Source: a virus (taxonomy: Duplodnaviria; Caudoviricetes). Taken from it: a stretch of 63,602 nt of DNA. The stretch spans positions 1 through 63,602 of IMG/VR virus record IMGVR_UViG_3300046003_002370, one strand, 5' to 3'. The notes under the pieces are model-generated. The model was not told the DNA's origin, ran no database searches, and saw only the letters and a program-made list of their open reading frames with translations. Shown one piece after another: positions 1-59,583 of the stretch. Position 1 is the first letter of the stretch. The number at the start of each line of letters is the position of its first letter. Made by a program: the position numbers and the translations under genes.

Positions 1-126
1 TTAAATATATAATTTCAGAAGCTCTACAATCAGCATTAGTAAAAGTTGATTTAGAACAATGGTTTAAACAATTTAAAAAGAAATAAAAAATAGAAATTAA
101 AAAAATATGAAAACAGCAGTAGAATT
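1..126. repeat. Terminal direct repeat (circular assembly overlap), copy 1
   Basis: 1-126 is identical to 63474-63599. Confidence 0.95.
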
Positions 127-2287: not shown

Positions 2288-3052
2288 ATGAAGAGTTACA
2301 ATATACAAAATTACATAAGGTACAAAGAAGATATTAAAGAATCAAATAAAGATAGCCTTGGTAATGACTTTGGATCCTATTCACGTGATAAACTAATTGT
2401 TAAGTTTTTACCGTTAGTAGAAAATATTGCAAAGAAGTTTTCAACCACTCAACAAGCGTCTGGTGTATTAGATATTATGGATCTTACGCAGCATGGATCT
2501 GTTGGATTAATACAAGCAATTGATAAAATTGAGTGGGATAAAATAAACAATTCTGACGATGCTGAAAAGACAATCAAATCATTTATATCCAAGCGCGTTA
2601 AAGGATCAATTAGAAGAGCTATAGACATCAATCGCGGCAGCATAAAGATTCCAGAACATAAGCTAAATGAAATTAGAAAAGATAACGGTGAAGACCATCT
2701 AATGGTAGCAATGTTTTTCAATTCAATATTCCTAAGCATCGACGAACAACTTGAAGATGAGGATAATGATAATATGCTTTATCAAATACCAGATAACTCT
2801 GAACCTTATAATTTAACTTTGTTAAATTTATATTTAACTAGTTTACTGAAAAAACATTTGAATGATAAAGAGTTTGAAGTATTGCGGTTAAGTTATGGAT
2901 TAGACTGTGATAAACACTCAGCTAACCAAATTGCAGAGCTATTAAATATAGAGGGAGCTAGTGCTTATGTAAGAGTTTCAGAGATAAAAAAACAAGCAAT
3001 TCAAAAACTAATTGACAACGTTGACCCTTCTCAAGTCCTTGATTACCTATAG
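2288..3052 (+). CDS. Phage RNA polymerase sigma-70 family factor
   Basis: Region 2 (LPLVENIAKKF...DLTQHGSVGLIQAIDK...SIRRAI, IKIPEHK) and region 4 (LNDKEFEVLRLSYGL...RVSEIKKQAIQKL). Confidence 0.9.
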   Translation: MKSYNIQNYIRYKEDIKESNKDSLGNDFGSYSRDKLIVKFLPLVENIAKKFSTTQQASGVLDIMDLTQHGSVGLIQAIDKIEWDKINNSDDAEKTIKSFISKRVKGSIRRAIDINRGSIKIPEHKLNEIRKDNGEDHLMVAMFFNSIFLSIDEQLEDEDNDNMLYQIPDNSEPYNLTLLNLYLTSLLKKHLNDKEFEVLRLSYGLDCDKHSANQIAELLNIEGASAYVRVSEIKKQAIQKLIDNVDPSQVLDYL

Positions 3053-5087: not shown

Positions 5088-5130
5088 TTACAGACACAAC
5101 ACGATGCATTATTGATAATAATAATGTAAC
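5088..5130 (+). promoter_or_regulatory. Class I promoter-like element upstream of SSB
   Basis: ttacagac-acaac-acga-N8-tgataat-aataa-tgtaac. Confidence 0.75.
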
Positions 5131-5170: not shown

Positions 5171-5494
5171 ATGGCAAGTATTATTAAAGCAAGTATCAAC
5201 TTAAATGAAATTCCAAAGCACAAAATTATTGATGGCAAGAAAGGTAAGTACCTTCCAATTACAATTACTATCAATGACGAAGTAGATCAGTTTGGAAACC
5301 AAGGACCAGTGATGGTTGAACAATCAAAAGAAGAGCGTGAATCAAAAGCCGCTAAAGTCTACTTAGGAAATGTTAAAGTCGTATGGACAAACGGCACAAA
5401 TGTGGATGCAGCTCCACGACAAGATGCAGGACAATCGCCAGGCACAAACTATTCTAAGCCTGCGGCGGCGGTTGTTGATGATTTACCGTTTTAA
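5171..5494 (+). CDS. Single-stranded DNA-binding protein (Bacteroidota phage type)
   Basis: Acidic DDLPF C-terminus; KGKYL and YLGN motifs; replication-module context. Confidence 0.75.
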   Translation: MASIIKASINLNEIPKHKIIDGKKGKYLPITITINDEVDQFGNQGPVMVEQSKEERESKAAKVYLGNVKVVWTNGTNVDAAPRQDAGQSPGTNYSKPAAAVVDDLPF

Positions 5495-13563: not shown

Positions 13564-16500
13564 TTATTGGTTCTTATTTTTTTCTACTCTGTCCCAAATC
13601 ATTTCTTTCTTAACAGCTGCTTTTTCTTTTGCAGTAGCCAACGAATCAATATATTCGTTCATTTGTTCATCAGTCATTTTATCAATTCTATTCGCTAATG
13701 CTTCTTTTTTAGCTATTCTGTCCTCAGCTGACTTAACATCACTTTCAAACTTCTTAGTTGTTTTAGCTTCTGCTTTTATTCTGTCCTCTTCTTCATTAAC
13801 AACTCCAACATCGTAAGGTTTCCAACCAAGACCTAACGCAAGTTTTTGCCAGGTTTTATTTCTTTCGTCTAACATTTCAGCTACGTTATTTGCTTTGTCA
13901 ACTAATCTATCTAATGGAAAGTTTGTAGTAGCCGCTGTAACTTTACCTGCAATATCATAAGCAGGAGAAGGATTAAATTTTCCGTCTTGCATTAGACTAA
14001 ACCCTCTTTCCTTAATAATATCCTTATCGTATTTAGAAGTGTTCCAAGCAGAGTTTAATTTAGACATTTTAGAACTTATAGGTGGAGAAATACCGGCTGC
14101 AGCAATAATAATTTTAGCAGACTCACCTTTGAATCCTTTTTCTTCTTGTTTTAAGTATTCTAAAATTGTATTTTTTACTGTCGAAACAACAGCTCCGTAT
14201 ATACCAGTACCTCTTAATATGGTGTCTAACATACTGTTTGCAATAGATATATATTTTTTGCCTGCTTTTTCTTTTTGCTTAGCTTTTTCTTTCTCATCTT
14301 CTGGCTCTTCCTCAAAAGCAACTGCAAATAATGCAGACTGTAAAGAAGAAAATATCATACTTTGTATAAATCCATAATACAAGATCTTTGAGATATGTGT
14401 CTTAGCGTCTCCACGTCCATTTATAAGGTCTCTACCAGCCTTTTTCATCAATCTATTATATTGCATAGGCGTATTGCCAAAAGCTAATATAAGACGTCCT
14501 ATTGAGCTCGCTTGTTGTTGAGATATTTTGCTAGGATCTGCTGATTGTTGTGATTCTTCCGATGTTGCTAAGAAATCTTTATATGCTGCGTCTTTTGCAT
14601 CACTCGCGGACATGCCTTGTTTCTCGTAAGTATTAATTCTATTCCTGTAGAATGTAGCTCCGCCTGAACAAATAGCAAAACTATCCGCCATTTGTGTTGG
14701 TGTGTAACCTACTTTTAATAGATATGCTAAAGCTGCCTTTACTTTATTCTTTGAACCTTCAACTGCGTTAGCTAGTTCAGCTTGATCAACATCGGATTTT
14801 AAGCCTGCTCTACGTTCTTTTAATGAATTTGAATTCCATAATTCAGAGAAGTCTTTCCAATATTGTGGTTGGTTAGCAAATGCTTTAGCCGCCATAGCCG
14901 GATTGTTATCTGACCAGTTTATAAAGTTTGTCGATGCAACTAATTGAAGTACAGCAGATCTTGTATTTAAGAACATTATCGCACCAGATGAATTATTCAC
15001 CCAACTAGCCCAAGCGCTTCCAATTTTATCTCCGGATGACCTGTTTGTTCCATTTTTCATTCTAAATAAGGAATCTTCTAATGCACCTCTAAAATCTGTA
15101 CCTCTTGCTGCTTCTATTTTATTTAAGTTTTCAGGTGAAAATATTGCATCTGCATTTTCAACAAACTCTCCTAATATTTGTTTTCTACCACCCTTCTCAG
15201 TAACATTATGCAAATCGGACACAATAGACTCTACATTCCAGTATTCTGTTGGTTTTATCCAACCTTCTAACTGTCCACTTGCAGCCGACAATTTGTTAGC
15301 AAAGTCAGTAAACGCAGGATCATTCTTTATAACATCAACTAGTTTATCAATTTCAGGTCTAGACAAGCCAGGAATTTCAACTCCATTAGTATCCCATAAG
15401 TAAACCCTTACAGCTTGATCGTATGTATTTGTTGTGCCTTCTATTATCTTTGTTAACTTTTTAGCCTCAACAGGGTGTTCCTTTTTTAAGTCTCTATATC
15501 CTTGTTTTATATTTGCTCTAATATTGTTTATTCTTGTAACTCCAGCAGCATAAGGTTTTAATAGATTGTCTTCAAAGAACTTCTTTTGTTCTTCTCCACG
15601 TGTTCCTTTACCCATGAAGTCATACAATAATCCAGCAAAATCCTCAGCAGATGGCGACATAAACACTCTAAACTTGCCTTTACCAGCGCCTATTGTTCTA
15701 GCTGTAATATCTGAGAATTGCTCGTTTACACCAATACCTCTTGTCTCTTCTAATATTTTGTTAAACTCTGTAGATAAAGCTTTACTAAACTGAATTCCAG
15801 ATACATCAGCGACTTTAGTTAAAGGTATAATTTCATACCTACCCTTGCTACTTTTAACTTCTTTGTCAAGCAGCAAATTATAGGTAGAAGCATCAGAAAG
15901 CTTGCTTGCAACATCTTTATTTCTAATTTTAGCTAAAGACAATGGAACTAATTTTGATGTTGAGTTAAATTCTATATAGTCTTTATTATTTATTATTTCT
16001 TCAAGAACACGAGGCATTATATTTATCATAGCGTCTTCATGTTCTACAGTATATTCCGGCTCAATTAAAAGTTTTTCGTAATATTCATTCTTATTGTTTT
16101 CAATTTTTTTACCATTCTCTAAAATAAGGTTTCCTTTTTTGTCTGTTTTATATTTATACTTATTAGTTACTTTATTTAGTCTTTCTTGTTTTTCTACTTC
16201 TGGTAATGTATTTAAAAACTTATCAATAGTCCTTATTGCTGTCGGCGTTAAATTTCCCTTTTTATTTCTAGGCAATTTTCTTAGAATGTTACCTTCCTTA
16301 TTTTTTTTATCAACAACAATGCCAACCATTGCGGACAATGAGCGTATCCCACTAGCAATATTGTTATTACCCGCAAACATTGTATAAACAGTACCTATAC
16401 GAGTGTTTCTTTCTGTTTTTGATATTCCATTTTCATTAACCCATTCTTTAGTTATATTAAAAAATAATTCTGCTTTTAACTTATTTATTTCATTAAATTT

Positions 16501-19500
16501 TGAAAGTTCTTTTCCGGCTTTTTCTATAGAAGAGGAATTATTAGGGTCAATTAATATAGTATTTTTTACATTAGTTTGCTTTGTAGGATTAATGCTAGTA
16601 TACTTACCATCTTTGCCTAAAGCTTTTTCTAAAGTATTAATTTTTTTAATTATTCCTTTACTAGTATCACTTAGGTCTAATTCACTATTGCCTTTGGCTA
16701 ACAAACTATTAATATTATCAGCGGACAAAGACTTTTTAATGCTTATTACCTCAGGGCTGTCAGGCGCTAATATATTTCCTTCTTTGCTAATTACCTTTTT
16801 AAATAAATTTTTTACCCAATCAACTCCAGAAGAGTCAGTTCTATATTGGCTAGCCCTAAGTCCAGCTAATAATCCTTTATCAAAAGTTAATTCTATAGGA
16901 AGCATTTTAAGTAGTCCTTCTCTACTTTTAATATAAGATGATAATGCTTCATTATCAAAATTTTGGTAACCAACGGCATTATTAGCTAAAGGCATTGGAG
17001 ATTCTATTCCAAAAATTCCCATAACATTATCTAATAACCCCCTATATGTATTGGTGTCGGTGTTCATTGTTTCAGAACTACCGCTAAAGTTAAAATCACC
17101 ATCAATTATAGCTTGTTTTTTTATACCCTCTGAAAACTGTATTAAAGAAGCTCCAGCTTTTAAATCCGCCGCTTGTTCAAGTGTTTGAACAGCCTCCATT
17201 CTCACAGCTGTATTAGACGCTATCTTACCATACAAACGAATCATAGCTAATATAGTTTGAGAACGAGGATCCTGTCCTCCAAAAGGTTCAAATGATCCAT
17301 CTTTATTTATACCAAACGCGTTTAAAAATTCTTCTTGAGTTATATTCTTTTTTAATTGAAATGGAATTAACCCAGCTCCTTTACCTAATCTTTCTTTTTG
17401 GTCATAAAAAAGTTGTTGCAATTTTCTTGGAATACTAAGTCCTGTGCCTATCAAAATATCACTAGCGGGCATACCTTCTAGTATAGCTCCCTCAGGCAAT
17501 AACTTTATTAATTTGGTTCTATTGTCATATATTATTTTTTGAATAACTGGTATTTCTGGAGTTGCTAAATTTGCTTTTGCATCAGTAACTTTACGTACGG
17601 TTGTGCCAAAAAACTTGGCAGTAACCTCTGGGGCTAAGTCATTTAATTTTGCAAAAGTCAAACTTCCTAATTCAGATGCGGTCATGGCGTCTATCTTTTC
17701 TTTAACAGAAGCATTGTATTCTTGACCTAATTCGGCACCCATCATATCGATTGGGTTTATCAAATTGGCTTGCCTATCCTCTTCATCTCTAATTTCATCA
17801 AGCGTAGAGTCAAAAGAATAATCATCTTCCATATCATAGGCCGGAGAACCGCTATCGTCCATTATTTCTTTAGAAAATTTTTCAGAAAGAATTCTTTTGG
17901 ATGCTGCAATAGCTCGCATTGGTAGGTACTTATTTATATAAGCTGCTAATGGAACACCCGCCTTCGGGTCATAGCTTTTTATTAAGTCATATAACCCCCC
18001 TGAACCTGTCTCAAGTTCGTCTGTTAGCAATTGCTTATCAAATCCCGGGGCGTCTCTTCTTTTATCTACTAATTTAGATGTTATAGGTCCAAATTGTTTT
18101 ATAATATCAAAAGCGCCTTCGATGCCTTTTTCATCATAAATTTGCTGTACCTTATTAGACGCAACTGCTCCTTTATTATTTTCTATAATTTTAACATCTT
18201 CTGCTTCCTCTTCGCTTACTTTTTCCTTAATACTTTCTTTTGGTTTTTCTGTTTTCGGCGTTTCTTGTGGAGCTTTTTTAATTTCAATTTGTAGTTTACG
18301 TTCAATATTGCCTTTTTGAGCTTTATAATCAGCTTCTTCCATATCACCATAGCCTTCATCATATTCCACCTCTAAGTTAGCTAGCTCTTTTTTAAGTTCG
18401 TCAACTTTGGAAAATTCAACACCAGCGTCTATACCACTAGCTATTCCAGAATATTCTTTTGTCATGGATTCCAATTCCGCTAACTTTATAGCCCCAGATT
18501 TTTTACCAGATTCAATATCTGATAGTGTCAATGTACCAGTTGAAATCTTTTTACCAAGTCCTACTACGAAGTTGTACATATCATTTTCGCCTTTAAAATC
18601 AAAAGCTGTTATATCTGGATGTGTTTTCTGAACCATTGATCCAAACAGTCCAGCTAGCCCTTTATATTTTTTACTTTTTTCCGCAAAGGTTATATCTCCT
18701 TTTGACACAAGTTCTAAAAATCTAGAAATAACTTCAGTAGCTTTAAGATCGCCATTTTCATTTCTTTCCGTAGAATTTACTAATTGTTTGTATAGGTTCT
18801 TATCTAACTTTTTAGTAGTTAAAAGTAATTGTTTCGCTATTGGAGTAAAAGCTTTTGGATTTGATTTTAATAAAAGGTTGGCAGCATAATGTCCTACCTC
18901 ATGCGTAGCTATCTGAGACCGTCCATTAGACAACATATTTTCTTTGACTAGTATTTGTCCTGTCGTATCGTTATTAAATCCATCCGCCCCCTCTCTTATT
19001 CCATCTATAGCTGTTTTTTGGTCTATTTCGCTTAACCCAGATTTAGTTTTTATATATTCAATAGCTTCATTTTTGGTTTCAAAAGCTTTTATTCTAGCTC
19101 CTTCTACTTTACTTGCATTATTAATATTTATATCTATCTCTTGTTTTAGGTACAAATCGAAAGCGGCTTTTTGAATTTTTTCAGTTGATGGCTTAATATC
19201 TCCCTCTAAACCGACACCTTCCGCGGCTTGCTCAAGCAGATCGTCATACCTATCAGGCTTAGAATATTTTAGTAACTTAAATCTAGATACATCGCTAGAC
19301 ATGCTGGATGGACTTAATGCGTCTTGTTTTATAGCTTCCAGTTTGTTGAATTCAACCCTTAAGTCTTCTATTATAAGATCCTTATTTTCAGTCGATATAT
19401 TTTTATCATCTAATATCTCTTTAGCCTCATTTTGTAGGCTAGCTTTTTTACCTTCTATAGAAATAATAGCCTCGGCAACACCGGCTCTTAATGTGTTGTT

Positions 19501-21921
19501 TATTAACTTTTGCTGCTTCTCTATAGCTGTATTCTGCTCAATTTCCTTTTTTTCCATTAAAGAACCAAGAGCTTTTTTTTCTTCAGTACTTGTTGCTAAT
19601 TCAAATTTTTTTCCTAGTTCATTAAGCTCTTTGCCTAATGTCCTTATTTCATTTTTAGAATTATAATCAGAAAATGCAGACAAATATAACCCTTTTGTAT
19701 ATGGAGTACCCGACATAACCATACCCATACCAAACCCTGAGAAACCTGCATGTGCGGCATTTTCCATTACTGGACGTCCATCTATTAAATTCTGTGTCAT
19801 TGTAGTGCCGACTTCACCCGCGCTCTCTAAGAATTGATCAAACACAAAGCCCGGAGTTTTACTTTTAAAATATGCTTTCATGCTATTATCAATAACGTCC
19901 GGCCCTCCCGCTCTGCCAAGAGAAACCTTTGCTCTCTTTAATATTGGTATAGTTGTCAATGCAGAAAACCCAGCTTCCGCTCCCCCATATCCAATTGATT
20001 TTAACCAAAGTTCTGTTTTAGAATAATTAGCTTCTCCTGCTGCCATTTCCGTCTGCATATCAGCCATTTTAGATCCAGCTGAAGTTACCCCAACCATAGC
20101 CGTGGCTGCTCCCCCGGAAAGGACCATAGCTGTTATTATAGGTATTTGTGAAGTAAGTTCTTGAGCAGCAAATTTACCAAAATTAGAACCGTTATCAAAA
20201 GCATCTTCAAAAGACACGTCTCTAGTGTATGAATTTCTAATATCAGTAACCGCATTTGTGTAATTAACAGCCCATTTGTCCATTCTCTCTGATGCAGTTT
20301 CTGCATCTTTGCCATATATCATTTTTGATACCTCATCTCCTGCGTAAGTAAAAGGAGTCAACACGTCTAATACTTTACCTGTAAAGTAAGCTCCGCCAAC
20401 GGCTAAATCACTTAATCCTGTACCAACTGTAGTTAAATATTTTTCAGATAAATCATAGTTTTTAGCGGCTGCTGTGGAGAATATATCTGAATCTTCTAAC
20501 TTTTTTAAGTTTTCATTCTGCTCTTTAAAAGCGTTGATAGCATACGAACTATTAAGTTTATATTGTTCTTCTAGTTTGTTATACGCATTCAAAAACCCCT
20601 TATTTACTTGTTGCCCGTTTTTTAAAGTTACTATTTCTGAATCTAAAGGATCAAAAGTAATACCAACGTTAGCAAATTTACGAACTATAGCTGTTAATTC
20701 CGTGTCGCTTTTAGGAACTCCCTTAAATATATCGGCACAATCAACGGCTAAGTTGTTTATATTAATTGCTTTATTTTCAGCTATTTTTAATTTAGTTGTT
20801 GATTTATTTTGGGTATCTACGGCTTGTTTATTAGCTAATAAAGACCCGACGTATAGACTGGACTGCATAGATGGATCATTTTCTATAATTTTTTCTGCAA
20901 CGTCCGCTTTTTTATCAGTAATAGCCCTATTTTTTAATAAATCTCGGGTCAATCTTTCTGTTTCCAGCCCTAATTCTTCCTTTGATATATTTGGATTTCT
21001 TTTTAGTATTCTTAGTTTTGATTCTCTTAATTCTTTTTCGTAAGGCTTAATTATTGTAGTAGTGTACCCCGCTCCTCCCATAGCTATTTGGCCAGTTGCA
21101 GCCATTGAAACTTTCTGTTCTTTTTTAGGAACAAATAAATCGGGATTATCAAATTCTTCGTCCACCTGAGCTTGGAACTCAGGGGTTATTGCTTTTGCTA
21201 CTTGCTTATTGTAATTTAATTTTGTAATATCTTGTAGATATTTATTTTTAGATAAATCTTTAGCTTTTATGTTCTTATTAAAAAAATCTTTAAGTATATC
21301 CGCATTCTTATTTGCTATTTCAGGGCGTTCCTTTGCGTTAGCATTTAAGACACCGACATCAAATTGTAACACGTCAGATTCTATTTTTTTACCAGTAGTT
21401 GGATCAGTATACACGGCTTTTACTGCGTCAAAAACATTTGATATATCACCCCCTAATGAGGTTGTTTCTTCAAAAGTCAAATTAGGTATACCGGCATATA
21501 GCTTTTTAAGGAACTCGGACCCTTCCTCCTCCTCCATTGCAAAAGCAGTTTTATTTGCTTTTTCGGTTCTTAATGATGAAGTTAAATAATCACCAACACT
21601 ACCTTTTTCAATAACAACAGGCTCGTATTCCCTTTCTATTGGACCAATTGTAATTGATCCTTTATCCAGCTTTTTTATATTATCTAATATAGCGTCTTTT
21701 TTCCTAGGTGTAGCTGCCTTCATTTTTTCAACACCTAGTATATCTAATTCAGGAGTTGTTGGAAATGCACTTTTTTGCTCAATAGGTTTTGCTTTAACCT
21801 TTTTAGGAGCTAATTTTTTTTCTTTGATATAATCATCAATAGAAACCTCTGCCTTATCGGCAGCGGCTTGTATCTGTTCTTCTGTATAATCTAATCCATT
21901 AGGGTGTGTATATACCGGCAT
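13564..21921 (-). CDS. Giant (2785 aa) putative virion/ejected multidomain protein with HExxH peptidase motif and sigma70 region-2-like domain
   Basis: Last gene of the structural arm, after two ejection-like genes; HEVGH near aa 1007; GLYDLIKSYDPKAGVPLAAYINKYLPMRAI near aa 1310-1340; Gly/Ala hydrophobic segments. Confidence 0.8.
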   Translation of the reverse strand: MPVYTHPNGLDYTEEQIQAAADKAEVSIDDYIKEKKLAPKKVKAKPIEQKSAFPTTPELDILGVEKMKAATPRKKDAILDNIKKLDKGSITIGPIEREYEPVVIEKGSVGDYLTSSLRTEKANKTAFAMEEEEGSEFLKKLYAGIPNLTFEETTSLGGDISNVFDAVKAVYTDPTTGKKIESDVLQFDVGVLNANAKERPEIANKNADILKDFFNKNIKAKDLSKNKYLQDITKLNYNKQVAKAITPEFQAQVDEEFDNPDLFVPKKEQKVSMAATGQIAMGGAGYTTTIIKPYEKELRESKLRILKRNPNISKEELGLETERLTRDLLKNRAITDKKADVAEKIIENDPSMQSSLYVGSLLANKQAVDTQNKSTTKLKIAENKAININNLAVDCADIFKGVPKSDTELTAIVRKFANVGITFDPLDSEIVTLKNGQQVNKGFLNAYNKLEEQYKLNSSYAINAFKEQNENLKKLEDSDIFSTAAAKNYDLSEKYLTTVGTGLSDLAVGGAYFTGKVLDVLTPFTYAGDEVSKMIYGKDAETASERMDKWAVNYTNAVTDIRNSYTRDVSFEDAFDNGSNFGKFAAQELTSQIPIITAMVLSGGAATAMVGVTSAGSKMADMQTEMAAGEANYSKTELWLKSIGYGGAEAGFSALTTIPILKRAKVSLGRAGGPDVIDNSMKAYFKSKTPGFVFDQFLESAGEVGTTMTQNLIDGRPVMENAAHAGFSGFGMGMVMSGTPYTKGLYLSAFSDYNSKNEIRTLGKELNELGKKFELATSTEEKKALGSLMEKKEIEQNTAIEKQQKLINNTLRAGVAEAIISIEGKKASLQNEAKEILDDKNISTENKDLIIEDLRVEFNKLEAIKQDALSPSSMSSDVSRFKLLKYSKPDRYDDLLEQAAEGVGLEGDIKPSTEKIQKAAFDLYLKQEIDININNASKVEGARIKAFETKNEAIEYIKTKSGLSEIDQKTAIDGIREGADGFNNDTTGQILVKENMLSNGRSQIATHEVGHYAANLLLKSNPKAFTPIAKQLLLTTKKLDKNLYKQLVNSTERNENGDLKATEVISRFLELVSKGDITFAEKSKKYKGLAGLFGSMVQKTHPDITAFDFKGENDMYNFVVGLGKKISTGTLTLSDIESGKKSGAIKLAELESMTKEYSGIASGIDAGVEFSKVDELKKELANLEVEYDEGYGDMEEADYKAQKGNIERKLQIEIKKAPQETPKTEKPKESIKEKVSEEEAEDVKIIENNKGAVASNKVQQIYDEKGIEGAFDIIKQFGPITSKLVDKRRDAPGFDKQLLTDELETGSGGLYDLIKSYDPKAGVPLAAYINKYLPMRAIAASKRILSEKFSKEIMDDSGSPAYDMEDDYSFDSTLDEIRDEEDRQANLINPIDMMGAELGQEYNASVKEKIDAMTASELGSLTFAKLNDLAPEVTAKFFGTTVRKVTDAKANLATPEIPVIQKIIYDNRTKLIKLLPEGAILEGMPASDILIGTGLSIPRKLQQLFYDQKERLGKGAGLIPFQLKKNITQEEFLNAFGINKDGSFEPFGGQDPRSQTILAMIRLYGKIASNTAVRMEAVQTLEQAADLKAGASLIQFSEGIKKQAIIDGDFNFSGSSETMNTDTNTYRGLLDNVMGIFGIESPMPLANNAVGYQNFDNEALSSYIKSREGLLKMLPIELTFDKGLLAGLRASQYRTDSSGVDWVKNLFKKVISKEGNILAPDSPEVISIKKSLSADNINSLLAKGNSELDLSDTSKGIIKKINTLEKALGKDGKYTSINPTKQTNVKNTILIDPNNSSSIEKAGKELSKFNEINKLKAELFFNITKEWVNENGISKTERNTRIGTVYTMFAGNNNIASGIRSLSAMVGIVVDKKNKEGNILRKLPRNKKGNLTPTAIRTIDKFLNTLPEVEKQERLNKVTNKYKYKTDKKGNLILENGKKIENNKNEYYEKLLIEPEYTVEHEDAMINIMPRVLEEIINNKDYIEFNSTSKLVPLSLAKIRNKDVASKLSDASTYNLLLDKEVKSSKGRYEIIPLTKVADVSGIQFSKALSTEFNKILEETRGIGVNEQFSDITARTIGAGKGKFRVFMSPSAEDFAGLLYDFMGKGTRGEEQKKFFEDNLLKPYAAGVTRINNIRANIKQGYRDLKKEHPVEAKKLTKIIEGTTNTYDQAVRVYLWDTNGVEIPGLSRPEIDKLVDVIKNDPAFTDFANKLSAASGQLEGWIKPTEYWNVESIVSDLHNVTEKGGRKQILGEFVENADAIFSPENLNKIEAARGTDFRGALEDSLFRMKNGTNRSSGDKIGSAWASWVNNSSGAIMFLNTRSAVLQLVASTNFINWSDNNPAMAAKAFANQPQYWKDFSELWNSNSLKERRAGLKSDVDQAELANAVEGSKNKVKAALAYLLKVGYTPTQMADSFAICSGGATFYRNRINTYEKQGMSASDAKDAAYKDFLATSEESQQSADPSKISQQQASSIGRLILAFGNTPMQYNRLMKKAGRDLINGRGDAKTHISKILYYGFIQSMIFSSLQSALFAVAFEEEPEDEKEKAKQKEKAGKKYISIANSMLDTILRGTGIYGAVVSTVKNTILEYLKQEEKGFKGESAKIIIAAAGISPPISSKMSKLNSAWNTSKYDKDIIKERGFSLMQDGKFNPSPAYDIAGKVTAATTNFPLDRLVDKANNVAEMLDERNKTWQKLALGLGWKPYDVGVVNEEEDRIKAEAKTTKKFESDVKSAEDRIAKKEALANRIDKMTDEQMNEYIDSLATAKEKAAVKKEMIWDRVEKNKNQ

Positions 21922-35265: not shown

Positions 35266-37677
35266 TTATCCAAATAATCCGGTACCTAAACTACTTAAGT
35301 TATCAAAATCTGATTCAAAATCTTTTGGTGCAGAATCATTTTTCTTTTGATCTATTAATTGGCTTTGTTGTGTACCTTGCATTTTTGTTCTAGCATCTTT
35401 ACGATCTTCAATTGCTTTTATTTTTTGATTTTGCGATTGAGCATCTATACCTGCTATTTGTAATTTGTAATTAAATTCGTCTGCCATTAATTGTTTCTTA
35501 ACGGCTAACTCCTCGTGTAATCTTTGTATTTCAAAGTTTGCTTTTGCTTGCTCAATTTGAATCTGTGTTTGGGCTAGAGCTTGCTGCTTTTGTACCTCTG
35601 CCATAGCTGCATCTTGAGCGGCTTGAGTATTAAGCTGCGACTGCTGTTGCATCATTGCTTGCTGAGCCTGTTGCGCTTGTTCAGCTTTTTTCTTACGTCT
35701 ATATTTTAACGATTGATTAGCTAACTTTAAATTTTTAATCTGTCTAAGGTCAATAGCATCGTCTAAATCAATTCCTCCTGATTGCAAAGCTATTTGTATG
35801 TTCTGTTCTAATTGTGCCTTTTCTTCTTCGTCCGGCTCCAACTCTAAAAATATACCAAAATCATGCAAGTTCAATTGTTCTAATTCTCTTAACGTTTCGG
35901 CATTAAATATAGATATACTTTGTTTTAAAGCTTGAGCAGTTAACGGAAACTTTAATGCGTCCGCAACTCTTAAGGATATATTCTCACATAGTCTTAATGT
36001 AATGAATTGACTAGATTGGTTTATATGCTTAGTTGCTGTGTTAGACGCGTTAGCAGCCATCTTTTGTAACCCAACTAATGAATCTTTTTCCGGCATACTT
36101 CCATCTCTAGCTTCGTTCAACCCAGTTACGTCTCTTATCATTTGTAAATAATACTGATACGTAGAGATCAATGATTGTATTTTAGCCCCACCTGCCGATG
36201 TTTGTAATTCTTGAATTGGCACCTTTGCTGGATTACCTGAGCCGTCTTGCGTCATGGATCTACCAACAATACTACCGGTTTGGAAATACATATTCAATGC
36301 TTCTGCCGCGTTATAATTTGTACCATTACCTAAATCAACTTCAGCTAATCCATCAACATCAACAAAAACTCCATCAGGTACCATTCTTGATAGCACTTGT
36401 TGTAATTTTAAATGTGTCAACTGAATCATATCCGCAAAACCAGTAATTCTACCTACCGTAGACTCTATAACTCCTTTGTACATTCTAGGAGCACAGACAA
36501 CATAATTCATTTCAACTTTAGTCGTGTCCGCATACGGGCGTGTCATATTCTCTGACAATTCCCATTTAAGCATTTTCTTATGACCTAATATTTTTGCTCC
36601 AGTATATAATACCTCTATTGATCTTGAGATAGTAGTAAAGTTATCATTTACAGGTGGATTAAATGTATCCGGTTTTTGCAATGCTTTTTCAAGTCCGGTA
36701 TCGGTTTGTTTGATCTTGAATACTTGGGTTGTATAAGTTTTGTATTCAAAATATAAAACTTGTACATTAGAACCTTTATAATCCTGTCCATTCCAATTGT
36801 TAAGATAATTTCTATCTCCTGGGTATTTTTCTATTTCTAATAGATCCTCATCGGTTAGATTAGGAAATTCTTTTTTTAATTCTTCAAGACTAATAGATTT
36901 CGCCTCCCCAATGTAATATAAATCCTCAAAGTTTGGATCCTCAGTATAAGAATATACTAAGTTTGCTGGATCTACATATTCTACTTTAATGCCCTCGGCT
37001 TTAGTAAAATTTGTTTTACCTGCGGCAATACCTATTGTAACTAAATCGTAGTTTAATCTTCTACTAATGAGTTCGTATTTATTACGGTCCAGCACATTGT
37101 TTATAACTTCCTCCTCAGCTATTTCAACAGACTCTTTATAATCTAATTGTAATCTAAGCTGTAATTCATCATCATCTTGAGGCAAAGAAGCAGGATCAAC
37201 TGTACTAAATAAGTTGACACCATATTGTTCTTTAACCTGGGAAAAGTATGCTTTGTTTTGCATATCACGGATCATTCCTTGTGCAAAAGCGGTTTTCTTA
37301 TTTATAGACTCAGGATCCTGTGCAAAAGCATTAATTTCAAATACTTTGTCAGAAATACCATTAACCATAATATCAACAAACTTTGGTATTACGGGTACAA
37401 TCTTCCAATCTAAATTTAAGTAAGATAAATCTCCATTAATTGAAAATTCATCTTTATATTTTTTTATAGATTGTTCACCTCTAGCATACAACCTTAATGT
37501 ATTAAATTTATTCCAGTTGGATCCCCATCGGTTACCAGCACCATACCCAGATTTATTACCTGAAAACCATTCATTTTCAATAGCTCTTCCAACGGCTTCA
37601 CCGTATTCTAAACTTTGTTTTACTTCATCAGGTACAACCTGACTTGGAAAAGAACTATTAGTATTAGTATAAATCAT
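35266..37677 (-). CDS. Portal protein
   Basis: 803 aa after TerL; RLYARGEQ, IRDVTGLNEARDG, Gln-rich coiled-coil C-terminus. Confidence 0.8.
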   Translation of the reverse strand: MIYTNTNSSFPSQVVPDEVKQSLEYGEAVGRAIENEWFSGNKSGYGAGNRWGSNWNKFNTLRLYARGEQSIKKYKDEFSINGDLSYLNLDWKIVPVIPKFVDIMVNGISDKVFEINAFAQDPESINKKTAFAQGMIRDMQNKAYFSQVKEQYGVNLFSTVDPASLPQDDDELQLRLQLDYKESVEIAEEEVINNVLDRNKYELISRRLNYDLVTIGIAAGKTNFTKAEGIKVEYVDPANLVYSYTEDPNFEDLYYIGEAKSISLEELKKEFPNLTDEDLLEIEKYPGDRNYLNNWNGQDYKGSNVQVLYFEYKTYTTQVFKIKQTDTGLEKALQKPDTFNPPVNDNFTTISRSIEVLYTGAKILGHKKMLKWELSENMTRPYADTTKVEMNYVVCAPRMYKGVIESTVGRITGFADMIQLTHLKLQQVLSRMVPDGVFVDVDGLAEVDLGNGTNYNAAEALNMYFQTGSIVGRSMTQDGSGNPAKVPIQELQTSAGGAKIQSLISTYQYYLQMIRDVTGLNEARDGSMPEKDSLVGLQKMAANASNTATKHINQSSQFITLRLCENISLRVADALKFPLTAQALKQSISIFNAETLRELEQLNLHDFGIFLELEPDEEEKAQLEQNIQIALQSGGIDLDDAIDLRQIKNLKLANQSLKYRRKKKAEQAQQAQQAMMQQQSQLNTQAAQDAAMAEVQKQQALAQTQIQIEQAKANFEIQRLHEELAVKKQLMADEFNYKLQIAGIDAQSQNQKIKAIEDRKDARTKMQGTQQSQLIDQKKNDSAPKDFESDFDNLSSLGTGLFG

Positions 37678-39900
37678 TTATTTTATTATTTGTGAATTAT
37701 CTCCTGAATTATTATATTTTCTAAAATTTAAAGGTTTAGTATCCTTCATAAATTTTGCCGTCGGTGTATACAAATGCCTATTACAAGCCATAATAGCTAA
37801 CCCAGAACTTATCGATGCATCATGTTTGGTTCTATTGTTTATATCAAACTTCGCCCAATCATTTAGTGTATTTTGAAAATACAGAGTACCATAACTTTCA
37901 CCATTATAACCAACGTTTCTATCGATATAAGACTCTATTGCTGATGCGTGAGCTTGCTTAATATCCTCACTAGAGTTCGGTATTCCACCTATTTCTTTTT
38001 CGCTTACTGACAAATTATTCCAAACCTTATCGGGTCTGTTCATTGAAAATCCTCTGTAACCTCTTCTTTTGAAATGAAATAGCAATCTAGGTTTATTATT
38101 TTCTGCTAATATCGGCATGCCATAAAATACACAAGCCATTAACACATCTTCAAAAAATATCTCAGCTGTCTGAGGTCTTGCAATATATTCTAAAAAGAAA
38201 TGGTTTGGAGGAACGTCTTCCATTGAAAACTTAGTTAATCCATGTAATGCGCCATTCGATCCTTTGCCATCAACTGTTCCTGATATATCATAGCTATCAC
38301 AACCAAAAGCTCCACAGTGTTCATTACCTGGAAATTGTATTCCATCCTTTATTATTACGCGGTTTTGCAAGTGTTTAGGCGGAACCCAAGATATTAAAAA
38401 CCTACCATCTTTATTTGGATAAAAATCCACAACTGTGTCTTGCACTCCATTAGCCCATTGAAAACTGCCTCTTGTTAATACATTGGTGTTTTTCAGGTCG
38501 GCATTGTAATCTATTTGTTCGTATATTTTTGTAAGATTGAACAAAGATTGCTTTGCTTCATCTCTAAATGCGTGTTGTTCTGTTCTTGGGAATTGGCGAT
38601 AATATTCATTTAATCCATCAGGATCTGATTTTAAACCATCAACCTCATTTTGCCAGTGTTCAATAACGCCGTAATCTATTAAATTCTTATCAACACCTAA
38701 TATAGGTTTTGCTGGGGTATCAAATACTGGTATACCATATATATCAATAAAACCTTCATAAGACCATTCCATTGGTATAAATAAACTGTATAAACCTGAA
38801 CTTGTTTGTCCATTTAAGTTTCGCTTATTTACATTGGAATTGTAGTATAATTTCATAAAGTTGTCTCCTCCTTTACTTAGCGCGTTTGATGTTGAACCCA
38901 TCATACACTTACCAATAATTCTACTACCTAATCGTAAACAAGTTTTAGTAACTCGCCAGTTGTTTAATATATTATCTGGTCGTTCCCATTTTCCACTCTC
39001 ATCATGAGCAAGCATTTTAAGTTTCTCACCATCATAAGAGTTATCTCCTGTATTCTTCCAGTCAATTGTTGTATCAAGACCTTCTAATTCCTCTAGCTTT
39101 TCATTACTATCTAATTTCTTTCTAGTGAATTTTGAAGCTGGTATACGATATGCAATCTCTGTTTTTGGACGATCCATACCATCTTGTATAGGTCTAAAAA
39201 AGAAAGGGTAGTTAACGGATATTGGAACAACCTTGTCTGTAAACATTTTTTTAGCATCCGCCCCTGACTTTGATAATATACCAAAACGGGCATCGCTAGA
39301 TATAGTTGCTTGGTTTACAAGTTCTGCAGAAGACATAAATGAAAATCCAGAACGTCTATTTTTTAAATAACACATTCCGTATGATCTTTCGTCCGCTTTA
39401 CAAGCTTCCCAAAATATAAAAAACAATCTATTTGATTCTCTAAAATCTGCAACTCCAACATCTATCTTGCTCCATTGCAAGTACATATAGTGCGTACCGG
39501 TTATATAAGTAGGTTTTCCATTGTTGTAGAACGAATAACCTTCTTCCCTATACTTAAATTCGTTGTCAATATAATCATACCACCTATCTTTAAAATGGTC
39601 TGGTTTATCGTTCCAATCGAATACATTATTTATTTTACTTAACTCTTTTGGATATTCTAATTGTTCCCAAAATTGTTCTTCTTTAACGTTTGATCTTTTA
39701 TGAGAGTCTTCAATTAACGGTAACGCTATCTTTAAACCTTGAATTTCAAGTACTTCACCAATCTTTCCAGTTTTACTAATAACAACCATATCATGGTCTT
39801 TATTATACCCATACTTCCATTTTTTAAGACGATTACTTTGCTTAACCACGCTAGGTTTAACATAATCGTTTATTACTTTATATAAAGACTGTTCGTACAT
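37678..39900 (-). CDS. terL: Terminase large subunit
   Basis: LKNRRSGFS Walker A-like, HDESGKW Walker B, GSTSN, nuclease GCDSYD...HDASIS. Confidence 0.9.
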   Translation of the reverse strand: MYEQSLYKVINDYVKPSVVKQSNRLKKWKYGYNKDHDMVVISKTGKIGEVLEIQGLKIALPLIEDSHKRSNVKEEQFWEQLEYPKELSKINNVFDWNDKPDHFKDRWYDYIDNEFKYREEGYSFYNNGKPTYITGTHYMYLQWSKIDVGVADFRESNRLFFIFWEACKADERSYGMCYLKNRRSGFSFMSSAELVNQATISSDARFGILSKSGADAKKMFTDKVVPISVNYPFFFRPIQDGMDRPKTEIAYRIPASKFTRKKLDSNEKLEELEGLDTTIDWKNTGDNSYDGEKLKMLAHDESGKWERPDNILNNWRVTKTCLRLGSRIIGKCMMGSTSNALSKGGDNFMKLYYNSNVNKRNLNGQTSSGLYSLFIPMEWSYEGFIDIYGIPVFDTPAKPILGVDKNLIDYGVIEHWQNEVDGLKSDPDGLNEYYRQFPRTEQHAFRDEAKQSLFNLTKIYEQIDYNADLKNTNVLTRGSFQWANGVQDTVVDFYPNKDGRFLISWVPPKHLQNRVIIKDGIQFPGNEHCGAFGCDSYDISGTVDGKGSNGALHGLTKFSMEDVPPNHFFLEYIARPQTAEIFFEDVLMACVFYGMPILAENNKPRLLFHFKRRGYRGFSMNRPDKVWNNLSVSEKEIGGIPNSSEDIKQAHASAIESYIDRNVGYNGESYGTLYFQNTLNDWAKFDINNRTKHDASISSGLAIMACNRHLYTPTAKFMKDTKPLNFRKYNNSGDNSQIIK

Positions 39901-46189: not shown

Positions 46190-46446
46190 AATATTACGAC
46201 GATGTCCTGTAATTTAATAACTGTATATTTATTCCCATTAAGTTCTATACCATGCCCAGCCGCTTTATCGTAAAGTATTTTATCGCCTACTTTAACAACC
46301 TCTACGCTATCACTTATTGAAACTACTATAGCTTCTTTATATCTTATATTTTCTTTATCCTTGTCTGCTAATAATAATCCACCTTTAGTTTTTTCTATAG
46401 TTAACTTTGCTGGCATTATAATTATATTATTACCTATTGCCTTCAT
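46186..46446 (-). CDS. groES: Co-chaperonin GroES
   Basis: KAIGNNIII...KTKGGLLL...VKVGDKILY...QDIV. Confidence 0.85.
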   Translation of the reverse strand: MKAIGNNIIIMPAKLTIEKTKGGLLLADKDKENIRYKEAIVVSISDSVEVVKVGDKILYDKAAGHGIELNGNKYTVIKLQDIVVIL

Positions 46447-47992
46447 TTGCTCTTAGATTATTTATTACACAATCCGTTGACAATATGGTAATCGCTACTG
46501 ATGCAGCATTTCTTAATGCACTCTTAGTTACTAATAGAGGATCAATAATACCGTGTTCAATCATATTAACCGTTTTACCAGTTATTACGTTTATTCCAAA
46601 ACCAGTTTTAGCTAACACATTAGCATCCACTTCTTCGATACCGGCATTTGCCAATATGACATTGAAAGGAGCCCTAATAGCAATTAGTAATATCTCTTCA
46701 CCTATAGAGTTTGAATTTATATTATAAGAAGCATCTAACAAGGCAATTCCCCCTCCTGGCACAATACCTTCTTTTATTGCAGCCTTTGTGGCACAAATAG
46801 CATCTTCAACTCTGTCTGCTTTTTCTTTTAATTCAACCTCCGAATTAGCTCCTACTTTTACAACTGCTACTTTTGCAGATAACCTAGCTAATCTTCTCTC
46901 TAGTCTAATTACTTCTCCGGGGGCTTTCGTTTCAATTAACTGAGCTTTTATACTATCAATTAATTCTAGTACCTCTGTGTTTGATTCATCAACTTGTAAT
47001 ATGGTTTCTGCGTCGGTTGTAATACTTTTTAAACAAGTTCCTAAATGTTCAACGGATATTAAATCCATATCATCTCCAAGATCTTCGTTTATTATAGTTG
47101 CACCTGTTAATATTGCTAAGTCGTTTAATGTATCTTTTTTATTGATACCGTACGTTGGAGCGTTAATAACATTTACTTTTATATTTCCTTTTACTTTATT
47201 CATTGCCAACGCTGAAAGAACTGTTTGTTCTAAGTCACCAATTATTAGCAATGATTTTTTATTAGTTATTACGTATTCTAATACTGATTGAATTTGTCTT
47301 ATAGTTTCTACTGGAGATTCTAAAATCAATATCAAAGGGTTTTCTAATTCCGCCGTCTTTTTTAACGGGTCTGTAATAAAGCTAGAGTTAACTAATCCTT
47401 TATCATATTGTACACCCTCAATTATTTCTATTTCGGTTTCTTCTGCAGTTGATGATTCCATCATAACTACCCCATTATCACCAACAGCTCTAAAAGCATC
47501 GGCAATAATCTTACCTAGTACTTTGTCATTATTAGTTGAGATAGTAGCAACGTTGTCAATCATATCCCCGCTCACTTCAATCGCAATTGATTCTAGGTAT
47601 TCTATAACCTTATTAACAGCATCTTCAATACCTTTCTTAAGTTCTCTAGAATTAGTGTTATCTTGTACTTTGTAAGCTTCTGCTAGAATAGCTCTAGTCA
47701 ATACTGTTGCTGTAGTGGTGCCATCACCAGCTTCTTCAACTGTATTCCTAGCAGCTTCCTTAAGAAGTCTAGCTCCCATATTTTCTACAGGATCCAATAA
47801 GATTATACTGTTTGCTACAGTAACGCCGTCTTTTGTAATAATAGGTCTACCCATATTATCTTCAAGCATTACACATTTCCCACCAGCGCCTAAGGTTGAA
47901 CTTACGGCATCGGTCAGTTTATTTATTCCTTCAAACACTTTGTCCCTGGCTTCTTTACCAAAACTTAAGTGCTTAACAATTGCATCTGACAT
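46430..47992 (-). CDS. groEL: Chaperonin GroEL
   Basis: ITKDGVTVA, AGDGTTTATVL, EGIVPGGG, GIIDP. Confidence 0.95.
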   Translation of the reverse strand: MSDAIVKHLSFGKEARDKVFEGINKLTDAVSSTLGAGGKCVMLEDNMGRPIITKDGVTVANSIILLDPVENMGARLLKEAARNTVEEAGDGTTTATVLTRAILAEAYKVQDNTNSRELKKGIEDAVNKVIEYLESIAIEVSGDMIDNVATISTNNDKVLGKIIADAFRAVGDNGVVMMESSTAEETEIEIIEGVQYDKGLVNSSFITDPLKKTAELENPLILILESPVETIRQIQSVLEYVITNKKSLLIIGDLEQTVLSALAMNKVKGNIKVNVINAPTYGINKKDTLNDLAILTGATIINEDLGDDMDLISVEHLGTCLKSITTDAETILQVDESNTEVLELIDSIKAQLIETKAPGEVIRLERRLARLSAKVAVVKVGANSEVELKEKADRVEDAICATKAAIKEGIVPGGGIALLDASYNINSNSIGEEILLIAIRAPFNVILANAGIEEVDANVLAKTGFGINVITGKTVNMIEHGIIDPLLVTKSALRNAASVAITILSTDCVINNLRANEGNR

Positions 47993-55180: not shown

Positions 55181-55237
55181 TTACAGACCTGGTACGGATG
55201 GTGATTGATAATATATATGTAACAAATAAATAACAAT

Positions 55238-55420
55238 ATGAAAAGACTTAGTGATTTACATCCTCAGACCAGACTGGATCTGATAGAGGAAACCAGATGG
55301 CAATATGGACAGGAGTGGGTAGCTACCTGCATAAAGTATGACTTCCACATATCTTGTATGTGTGACTGGAGTAAGACCAGGCAAGGAGGCGAGTACTGGT
55401 GCTCGGTTGACTGGAGTTAA
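55238..55420 (+). CDS. First early gene, hypothetical
   Basis: Follows class I element 55181 and precedes a terminator. Confidence 0.6.
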   Translation: MKRLSDLHPQTRLDLIEETRWQYGQEWVATCIKYDFHISCMCDWSKTRQGGEYWCSVDWS

Positions 55421-55432
55421 CATAACCTGATC

Positions 55433-55457
55433 AGGTCCCGGAAACGGGATCTCTTTT
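55433..55457 (+). terminator. Rho-independent terminator
   Basis: aggtcccg-gaaa-cgggatct then ctttt. Confidence 0.7.
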
Positions 55458-55903
55458 ACTCTGCTTCATGCGGAATTGGCAGGGCGGAGCATGCGAGCTT
55501 GCGAGCATCGCTCGTGTATAGCACTTACAGACTCAGTACGAATGGTATTTGATAATATATATGAATCAAATGAATAACAACAAACTTAATAAAAAATAAA
55601 TACTTACAAACTTAATACGAAGTGAAATTGATAATATAAGTGTAACAAATAATAACTAATAAATAAATAAAATATGAAAAACTTAAATGAAATTAAAAGT
55701 AGGTTAGTTGATCGTGGATCTTTTGACTTAACCTTAGATCAAGAATTCTCTGGACTAACTAGAGAAGAACAAAATTCAGTCCGGGACTATGTTAGATTTT
55801 ATCTCCTCATGGAATCATAAAATGCTATACAAACTTACAGACTTAATACGACTAGTAATTGATAATATAAATGTAATTAAATAACAAACTAAATATAAAT
55901 AAA

Positions 55904-56314
55904 ATGAACAAATTTAAAAAAGAAGTTGAAGTAGTAGAAGTAGTTGAAGTAACTAAAACTAACAAAGAATTGATCGCTGAAGCCATATCTAAGCTTAGTC
56001 CAGAAGAACTAGCCTTAATATATCCGCCGATGGAACGAGCTAACTTTGTAGTCAGAAAGTCTTGGCTAGGTCGTGGACAAATCATAAGTTTTGTCAACAA
56101 CAAAAATCAAAGAATAACTTATAGTCACGACGAAGTCTTGAAAATAATGTTACCTAAGTTATCAATAATGCCATGTTGGATCAAACGTGAGTACTGGTCA
56201 CAATCAACTGACTTACCAAGTAATGTTAGGAATACAAGTGCGGTCTTGAGTGTTGAACAATTGATCGACGAAACTTCCAAAGAGTTTCAAGATGCTGAGG
56301 CAAGTCTAACATAG
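55904..56314 (+). CDS. Early hypothetical protein
   Basis: 136 aa after class I element 55835. Confidence 0.75.
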   Translation: MNKFKKEVEVVEVVEVTKTNKELIAEAISKLSPEELALIYPPMERANFVVRKSWLGRGQIISFVNNKNQRITYSHDEVLKIMLPKLSIMPCWIKREYWSQSTDLPSNVRNTSAVLSVEQLIDETSKEFQDAEASLT

Positions 56315-56679
56315 ACTGCTTCGGCTCCCCTCGAGGATGCTATACACTTTTACAGACAGAATACGAAGTATAAATGATAATATAAATGTAACTAAAAACA
56401 AATAATATGAAAGAACTAATCAAATACGCTACTGAAATGGCTAGACAATATCCACACAAGTTGGATGAAATAAATGATCTGCTAAGCCTGTGTCATTCTG
56501 AGATCGAAGAAGGCGGATCTGAGACCCACGAAATAGAGTTATGTGCTGAAGATATTAAACAAATATGTGAAGATGATGAATAAAGAACAATTAACCAACC
56601 TGATCGCTTTTGTGAGCCTACTGGTAGCTTACGGAATAATAATGTATTACCTAGGAGCTATAAACGGTTTTTAAAAACA

Positions 56680-56722
56680 GTGACGTTAGCCTATTATTTC
56701 TAGTTTAATAGGCTACTGTCAC
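56680..56722. promoter_or_regulatory. Operator-like inverted repeat, copy 3
   Basis: gtgacgttagcc-N19-ggctactgtcac. Confidence 0.65.
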
Positions 56723-56906
56723 ACTTTTATACGGTTCCTTTTTTTTTAGCGGTGCTATACACGGCCTGACCCTGCAATAAAGTCGGAAGAGTAGACTCCG
56801 TCCTACCTATATTTTAGCTATGCTATACACTTTTCTCCATCGATCACCCTTACAGACTAAATACGATGCCATTTTGATAATAAATATGAATCTAAAAACA
56901 AATAAC

Positions 56907-57182
56907 ATGAAGTACATTAAAGTTCAAAGCGAAGAAATTATCTTTAGTCATGAAAATGACCGCTATATCCTAATTAAGAAAGAAAATGACAAGATTATTG
57001 GGTTAAACTTCTGTCAAGGCGACGATTTTGATTACTTCGTTGAGCACTACATGGAAATTGATCACGACCTAACTAACTTCTATCATGTGGTAAGTAAGTT
57101 TATCGATCTACCTAACGAATATGACTTGATAAATGAGGTAATCTGGGCTTGGTTTCGGTATAAAAACCCCTGGTGTTCGTAG
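56907..57182 (+). CDS. Early hypothetical protein (probable start at MKYIKVQ)
   Basis: Track ORF 56820..57182 spans class I element 56850, so a downstream ATG is more likely. Confidence 0.6.
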   Translation: MKYIKVQSEEIIFSHENDRYILIKKENDKIIGLNFCQGDDFDYFVEHYMEIDHDLTNFYHVVSKFIDLPNEYDLINEVIWAWFRYKNPWCS

Positions 57183-57591
57183 TCCGAAAGCCTTGTAAAC
57201 AAAGGAGTTCGGGGTTATACCTATCTATCTTTTAAAACTAATAAATAATCAACCACCCTTACAAACTTAACACGATGTGGTTTTGATAATATAAATGTAA
57301 CAAATAAAAACTTATACTTATGGAAAATCATTTTGGAATTAGCGTGGAAGAATATTGGTGGAAAACTTTCACTAGCGAGGCTATGGACTCAACAACTACA
57401 AGTACTTATGCTCCGTTGAGCGAACCGTGGTATACGAAAACGATCGAGTAATATCACCTTGTAAACTTAACTTATGAAGAGTTAATTAATAGACTGGGTT
57501 AAAACGATCAAACTAGTTATTACCGTGACAATGAAATTATGGTAGAAATGGGTCAAATAAATGAATAGTAAACAATAAAAACAAAGAAATT

Positions 57592-57777
57592 ATGAAAGAA
57601 TACGAAGTAGAAGTGTGTGAAACACTCATAAGAATAGTAACCGTTGAAGCAATGAATGTGGAGGATGCGATTAAATTTGTAAAGTATGACTATAACAACG
57701 CTGAGTTAGTATTGGATAGCGATGATTTCTTTGATGTAGATTTTAATGTAGTAAATAATGATACCACAATAAAATAG
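57592..57777 (+). CDS. DpnD/PcfM-like small acidic protein
   Basis: YEVEVCETLIRIVTVEA...EDAI...Y...LVLD..DF. Confidence 0.65.
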   Translation: MKEYEVEVCETLIRIVTVEAMNVEDAIKFVKYDYNNAELVLDSDDFFDVDFNVVNNDTTIK

Positions 57778-57846
57778 AAGATTAATTTACAGACAAGACA
57801 CGATACCTAATTGATAATATAAATGTAACAAATAAACAAAAATAAA

Positions 57847-58074
57847 ATGACTAGAAAAGAGTGGTTTGATAACCAAACACCGGAGCTACAAGAAAAGTTC
57901 AAATACAATTGTAATACCATAAATGATGAGCCATGCTTTGATTACTGGATTACTAATGATAACGGTACGGAAGGATTAGGCGGTGCGTTTATATTCCACA
58001 AATCTAGGGAAGGACACACATTTTGGTATGAACTTAATAACCAACTAGAATCAATTCAAAAAAATGGAAAGTGA
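57847..58074 (+). CDS. Early hypothetical protein
   Basis: After class I element 57787; AF...SREG..FW resembles 55238..55420. Confidence 0.65.
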   Translation: MTRKEWFDNQTPELQEKFKYNCNTINDEPCFDYWITNDNGTEGLGGAFIFHKSREGHTFWYELNNQLESIQKNGK

Positions 58075-59523: not shown

Positions 59524-59583
59524 TCTACAGACACAATACGAAATGATGTTGATAATATAAATGTAACAAATAAATAATATACA

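Follow-up and report, generated by a model that had tools for sequence, protein, structure and literature searches.

Comparisons of sequence establish that P0001, a giant protein of 2785 amino acids (aa) encoded by a tailed phage (Duplodnaviria; Caudoviricetes), carries in its middle a genuine but diverged sigma-70 region-2 (sigma2) domain (regions 2.1-2.4; aa 1254-1349; 17875..18162, minus strand). The phage is known from IMG/VR record IMGVR_UViG_3300046003_002370, which is rated complete and which we analysed over its whole length of 63,602 nucleotides (nt), here called the window. P0001 is encoded by the last gene of the minus-strand structural operon (13564..21921, minus). Sister phages with the same conserved early promoters have no detectable sigma2, and we therefore conclude that the domain is not needed for these promoters and is not the general factor that reads them. 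Our tentative preference is for a role as an optional accessory effector, which would be injected into the cell and dock on the host RNA polymerase; the basis for this preference is the polyvalent build of the giant protein, the patchy distribution of the domain and the strong conservation of its regions 2.2-2.4.

The homology is carried by profile A2, an alignment of 15 family members over the sigma-bearing region. Searched against 177,635 distinct PDB sequences, A2 returned nine matches at E<=10, all nine of them sigma factors, including RpoS, RpoH and, as the best, a SigE/K-like sporulation sigma (8b3z_A, E 0.013), and all aligned over regions 2.1-2.3 in one register. Individual members are also recognized by sigma families, with one of the 15 matching Pfam Sigma70_r2 (4.9e-6) and three matching NCBIfam TIGR02937 (sigma70-ECF; best 1.2e-8). 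The homologue P0111 forms a link between the module and the sigma family, since it is matched from both sides: its aa 770-905 align with positions 20-127 (of 165) of TIGR02937 and score 23.9 bits in Pfam against a cut-off of 24, and a hidden Markov model (HMM) built from 204 main-type family modules finds P0111 at 57.2 bits and its two kin at 43.9 and 37.7 bits. The same HMM aligns 116 of 120 homologues of the free-standing sigma factor of this phage (5.6-13.6 bits), always at aa ~35-111, which is the Pfam Sigma70_r2 stretch. When A2 was compared with that sigma family by hhalign, the same parts fell in register (E 0.073; 0.012 for a sub-block). Finally, a language-model feature search (Atlas) with aa 1245-1400 placed 29 of 30 named matches in PF04542 clusters at a score of 0.96, where shuffled proteins reach ~0.95 about once in 100; the nearest clusters consist of short proteins (141-151 aa) from Bacillota and tailed phages that have Sigma70_r2 only. 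The sequence-only reading of this DNA, which quoted 69 residues (aa 1270-1338; 17908..18114) as resembling sigma70 region 2 and set them within a broader range (17140..18420; aa 1168-1594), was thus right to see a region 2 homologue embedded in the giant protein.

Across the 204 modules, regions 2.3-2.4 are best conserved, the stretch DEIETG..GI.DLI..Y.P is kept at 78-98% per position, and the residue aligned to Y430 of sigma70 is Y, F or W in 98%. The region 2.2 stretch, which contacts beta' in real sigmas, is also among the most conserved and aligns with RpoS, RpoH and SigE. Regions 2.1-2.4 of the P0001 family therefore resemble the sigma-70 family (PF04542, TIGR02937) in being in register with RpoS, RpoH and the sporulation sigma. 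The differences lie in the setting, a domain at aa 1254-1349 of a 2785-aa protein with no sigma3 or sigma4 found, and in the sequence itself: the P0001 copy falls below family thresholds, 88% of modules have a proline inside the helix of regions 2.3/2.4, and K stands at the position of W433. In P0014 and P0015, an insertion of ~60 residues separates the region 2.2-like and 2.3-like parts of the core. No region 4 was detected: no family member tested had a match to sigma4 (r4), TIGR02937 aligns in P0111 only as far as position 127 of 165, hhalign of the downstream block with the sigma4 part of the phage's own sigma put nothing in register, the downstream-block profile A5 had 0 matches in the PDB, and Atlas gave no usable match.

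The early promoters are well defined. The window contains 13 plus-strand copies of a class I motif of ~42 nt, mostly ~10-30 nt before the ATG of small early genes, with the consensus cTTACAgac-N5-ACGA-N8-tTGATAATATAAATGTAAC; 20 mononucleotide shuffles gave 0-2 matches. Twelve copies lie at 55182..61652 (plus), their TACAGAC elements starting at 55182, 55526, 55605, 55836, 56351, 56851, 57260, 57788, 58381, 59526, 60615 and 61620, and the thirteenth lies at 5089..5121 (plus), upstream of the open reading frame (ORF) at 5171..5494. Relatives G001 and G002 conserve the motif, and an exact-pattern scan of IMG/VR located it in at least 119 DNA stretches. These 13 conserved early promoters are real. 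They were described by the sequence-only reading as non-host-like, which agrees with their difference from the Bacteroidota promoter consensus, TTTG-N17-21-TAnnTTTG. That consensus has no site before any early gene of the 63,602-base record and is not enriched: 3.8 sites are expected and 7 are present, a number that 11 of 100 shuffles reach.

To relate the promoters to sigma2, we took from the IMG/VR scan 30 records of related viruses with the class I pattern and searched them in six frames with profile A2. Thirteen matched from profile position 1-4 and so have sigma2, six matched from position 25-129 and have a partial sigma2 or none, and eleven had no match to the sigma2-bearing region. Five of these eleven, all rated 100% complete, were inspected closely; each encodes a protein of 2759-3413 aa with the C-terminal module of P0001 (39-51% identity), and each has exactly one Sigma70_r2 match, in an ORF of 256-280 aa. 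G012 is the clearest case. In this genome (100% complete), 8 class I promoters show the full consensus, and no sigma2 was found with six-frame A2, with NCBIfam or with the HMM applied to the giant protein of 2906 aa. The giant proteins of G012 and G020 have only the C-terminal module in common with P0001, save for a weak peptidase-region match in G020, and neither gives a match with the sigma2 HMM or NCBIfam. The proposal that sigma2 reads the class I promoters is thereby contradicted, and a two-sigma cascade started by the virion does not follow from the sequence, because early promoters occur without sigma2. A non-homologous stand-in might take the place of sigma2 in the sisters that lack it. 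Records of another group without sigma2, the P0017-like group (G003, G004, G008-G010), contain no early region. A further relative, G005 (loci L019-L022; 94% complete), carries at ~43.8-48.0 kb on its minus strand 8 copies of AAATACGTTACAA-N13/14-GTGATAATATAAATG, whose elements are those of class I but with TTACA ~5 bp nearer the -10-like part. Its giant protein has no sigma2 region; the coincidence of a missing sigma2 with a rearranged related promoter is suggestive only.

The giant proteins form a large family. Among 8000 scored candidates, at least 622 are related to P0001 over aa 1240-1600, and all of these are metagenomic proteins of 1.5-3.8 thousand residues; a profile search of 1.84 billion representatives gave 582 family clusters (50% identity) at E<=0.001, a family absent from cultured phages. 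BLAST coverage of 120 giant homologues showed only aa ~1250-1600 and ~2030-2720 to be near-universal; a putative metallopeptidase (HExxH) region is common to ~36 of the 120, and the first 550 N-terminal residues are private to P0001. The sigma2 core is present in 181, partial in 15 and absent from 16 of 212 long family members. It is never free-standing: proteins of 91-293 aa gave just 3 short fragment-like matches, and the shorter proteins among 150 listed family representatives look like contig-end fragments. Sigma2 is thus a movable piece in the variable middle of giant proteins. Other variable parts hold ART-PolyVal (P0072, 4.8e-17), Zeta_toxin/AAA_33 (P0018), LysM (P0028) and DUF6934 (P0100). 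Because some members hold ART-PolyVal or Zeta-toxin domains, we regard the family as polyvalent-protein-like: very large, multi-domain, and with modules shuffled between relatives. The main text of Iyer et al. (2017; PMC5512222) describes the polyvalent proteins of phages and conjugative elements as packaged and injected with DNA, and includes injected proteins that act on host RNA polymerase, such as T4 Alt. P0001 and its relatives resemble these proteins in their giant mosaic build of constant and variable modules, and in homologues with ART-PolyVal, a Zeta-toxin-like kinase and LysM. They differ in that the 2785 aa of P0001 gave no match to MuF or to another known domain for anchoring in the head, and in that the family has no member among deposited phages; moreover, the word sigma occurs 0 times in the main text of PMC5512222, the supplements lying outside that count.

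The position of the gene is what suggests a route into the cell. The structural block starts with the large terminase (37678..39900, minus) and the portal (35266..37677, minus), both assigned by PHROG, and several PHROGs for virion structural proteins lie on the same strand between the portal and the giant ORF. Gene order around this ORF is the same in relatives L001 and L002. The portal is closest (42-50% identity) to those of deposited phages that infect Flavobacterium, Cellulophaga, Maribacter and Tenacibaculum, and two of these phages have a syntenic giant gene: MW202828 encodes a protein of 3859 aa at the equivalent position, in which no significant sigma2 was found (top domain score 4.4 bits), and Flavobacterium phage elemoF encodes one of 3694 aa annotated as a structural protein. 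The placing of the giant gene at the end of the structural genes by the sequence-only reading was therefore sound. In the model that we favour, the giant protein, whose gene closes the block of virion genes, would be packaged and ejected with the DNA. Once inside, its sigma2 module would dock on the beta' clamp helices of the host RNA polymerase core, the well-known partner of sigma2. By docking, the module would capture the host polymerase, block it or mark it as infection begins, in parallel with other polyvalent proteins whose enzymes target host machinery. Its outcome could be to block the host sigma, to tether the polymerase to the entering DNA or to initiate transcription.

We modelled the proposed contact in ESMFold2 by folding residues 1-110 of A2, which make up the sigma2 module, together with residues 1-450 of beta' from Flavobacterium johnsoniae (RPOC_FLAJ1). 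The score was 0.52 and the best of 3 controls reached 0.01 (range 0.00-0.01), which the procedure grades as weak support. Contact agreement between runs was at least 37%, and the predicted local distance difference test (pLDDT) of the partner was at least 76. The docking mark is reached by 58 of 80 solved complexes and by 2 of 110 mismatched pairs, and at scores of 0.60 or lower by only 7 of the 80 solved complexes plus both of the passing mismatches. Since sigma-beta' complexes are already solved, the pass may reflect likeness rather than binding.

Several observations weigh against the effector reading or against parts of it. The segment of P0001 itself has no sigma match at E<=10 in Pfam and NCBIfam, and phmmer with this segment against the PDB gave one unrelated match (E 0.76). 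Sigma matches are lost with the whole-length profile A4, which returned only coiled-coil noise from the PDB, and with profile A6 (short fragments, long flanks), which returned 1 unrelated match and no sigma; likewise, an HMM of the free-standing sigma family searched against 258 family proteins gave only noise and missed the module. The sigma2 fold itself rests on sequence, language-model features and the pLDDT of 77-80 in the docking fold, and the docking score lies in the weak band described above. With regard to delivery, we infer the presence of the giant protein in virions from the position of its gene, and, aside from aa 406-838, no module of the protein matches any deposited phage. The model also has an awkward consequence, in that a module blocking the sigma site of the core would hinder early phage transcription that depends on the host sigma; this difficulty would ease if the class I promoters were read in another way.

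An alternative that we consider unlikely, and yet better placed than the others below, is that the sigma2 fold has been reused independently of the polymerase, for instance to bind single-stranded or -10-like DNA of the entering genome, to hold an anti-sigma or other helical partner, or to serve as a spacer in the ejection machine. A module embedded in a protein of 2785 aa and never found alone would suit such a use, as would the helix proline seen in 88% of modules and a docking score that lies only in the weak band. What speaks for the polymerase as partner is the stretch of region 2.2 that contacts beta', which is among the most conserved parts and aligns with RpoS, RpoH and SigE, and the docking controls, which scored no higher than 0.00-0.01.

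Less probable again, in our view, is that the virion injects a true sigma factor, in which sigma2 and the neighbouring DNA-binding block, as a stand-in for sigma4, form a holoenzyme with the host core. On this account, the early promoters would be fired before any phage gene is expressed, and the free-standing sigma would take over later. Much of what we observed agrees with it: the sigma2 homology is real, regions 2.3-2.4 are the best conserved with an aromatic residue at the Y430 position, the docking score of 0.52 against 0.01 gives weak support, no Bacteroidota-type site precedes the early genes, and the first class II-like motifs lie shortly after the free-standing sigma gene. T4 gp55 also offers a precedent for promoter-specific initiation with sigma2 only. 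The obstacle is that G012, a complete genome with 8 full-consensus class I promoters, has no sigma2, and the same holds for four further complete class I genomes with one ordinary sigma gene each; in addition, no sigma4 was detected and 16 of the 212 long family members lack sigma2. Of the mechanism put forward by the sequence-only reading, the sigma2 homology, the gene position, the promoters and the second sigma stand, and the link to class I does not. A variant of equally low probability is that the sigma2 of the ejected protein forms a tethered holoenzyme with the host core at the entering DNA, and that the sisters use a non-homologous module of the same protein. If this variant were true, transcription specificity would be delivered as a protein before any phage gene is read.

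We give still less weight to the view that virions do not deliver the giant protein at all, and that it is instead made late and acts in the infected cell, for example as a late regulator that holds the polymerase. No cultured phage has a homologue of the conserved modules, and the 'structural protein' labels on syntenic genes are annotations of non-homologous proteins, which leaves room for such a role. The gene, however, lies at the end of the structural operon in a position kept by relatives, a family member has the polyvalent hallmark ART-PolyVal, and the size and mosaic build fit the injected polyvalent proteins described in the main text of PMC5512222. Finally, it is highly improbable that a helical segment merely happens to fit the pattern of sigma region 2, as might be argued from the failure of P0001's own segment in Pfam and NCBIfam and a best PDB E of just 0.013, given that five independent lines agree, all in the same register, and that shuffled proteins rarely reach the Atlas score.

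Phages redirect host RNA polymerase by sigma factors made after infection, by injected enzymes that modify the polymerase, or by injecting a whole polymerase. If delivered, a sigma domain that forms part of a giant virion-type protein would be a fourth route, in which a ready-made polymerase-binding surface arrives as protein. Sigma-70 domains and polyvalent proteins are each known separately. The literature that we searched, supplements not covered, did not describe any sigma domain as part of a virion, ejection or polyvalent protein. A close comparison for the domain is T4 gp55, which is related solely to sigma region 2, binds beta' and directs initiation from a -10-type TATAAATA element. 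Gp55 is a minimal, sigma2-only late sigma, and the class I and II motifs of the window contain TATAAAT. Unlike the module, gp55 is a small free protein that is made after infection and works with gp33 and the sliding clamp. A close comparison for the giant protein is the virion RNA polymerase, such as N4 gp50 or gp66 of the crAss-like phage phi14:2; this polymerase is likewise a giant protein whose gene follows the virion genes in a genome of podovirus type, and its delivery starts transcription. P0001 differs from these polymerases in that the D.D.D (DxDxD) polymerase motif is absent from its 2785 aa, as the sequence-only reading had noted, in that the whole protein matched no Pfam or PHROG family, and in that its C-terminal module matched nothing in the PDB.

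The free-standing sigma-70-family gene proposed at 2288..3052 (plus) was confirmed. It encodes 254 aa with both Sigma70_r2 (3.9e-5; PF04542 at 25.1 bits, above the cut-off) and r4 (7e-4) in Pfam, and matches phrog_351 (2e-20). A database search with this gene returned at least 8000 scored matches, from which we take the lineage to be abundant. A second, class II-like motif, AAAyrCGTAAT(T/A)ATA..., occurs at ~3074, ~3764 and ~7660 (plus), its first copy just after the free-standing sigma gene. It has a ATATAAAT-type downstream half in common with class I, and TATAAAT is contained in both motifs; the second motif may represent a middle promoter class. Separately, the 10-mer TGCTATACAC has 12 plus-strand copies (1839, 6119, 12801, 56338, 56753, 56821, 58488, 59116, 59919, 61304, 62198 and 62987), some inside genes and some just upstream of class I promoters.

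After the sigma2 core, P0001 has an acidic linker and a conserved block that looks like a helix-turn-helix (aa 1356-1464; 17530..17856, minus), and then conserved block X (aa 1465-1596; 17134..17529, minus), which is found in relatives with or without sigma2. The block after sigma2 (profile positions ~83-210) is present in 2-3 copies per protein in some homologues (P0095, P0100 and P0294), and it is therefore a repeatable unit in its own right. Upstream of sigma2, the putative metallopeptidase region (~aa 950-1150) has a conserved HExxH, HEVGH, at aa 1007-1011 (18889..18903, minus), a motif only, without a family match. The segment after it, aa 1089-1151 (~18469..18657, minus), has a weak phmmer match to the H2B-like half of giant-virus histone doublets (7lv8_D, E 0.0092; 7n8n_B, E 0.044); rare histone-fold domains are mentioned among polyvalent proteins in the main text of PMC5512222. 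Nearer the N terminus, aa 406-838 have a weak match (E 4e-4) in Tenacibaculum phage Gundel_1, to a protein of 2482 aa labelled 'structural protein'. Searches of deposited phages by tblastn found nothing for the sigma region, the C-terminal module or P0111, and a megablast of the giant gene had no match.

The C-terminal module (~aa 2030-2720; 13762..15834, minus) is the constant part of the family and has one hydrophobic stretch at aa 2518-2536. We considered whether it hides a polymerase, as R-x3-K-x8-YYG and ADSF stretches in it resemble motifs B and C of T7-type enzymes. This was rejected because the order and spacing of the motifs do not fit, the following acidic stretch is not conserved, the YYG stretch continues into a hydrophobic segment, and the PDB and Pfam give no support.

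Elsewhere in the window, a GroEL-like chaperonin is encoded at 46430..47992 (minus; phrog_5725, 3e-134) and is present in cultured relatives too. The ends of the record (1..126 and 63474..63599) are 100% identical over 126 nt, which points either to a circular assembly or to a repeat at the termini; the record is classed as linear by its source. ARAGORN reports a tRNA of 70 nt with anticodon TTA (a tRNA-Stop reading TAA) at 61405..61474 (plus), inside the early region, and the match to the free-standing sigma in relative G005 holds one in-frame TAG. Together, these two observations may hint at stop-codon suppression in the lineage.

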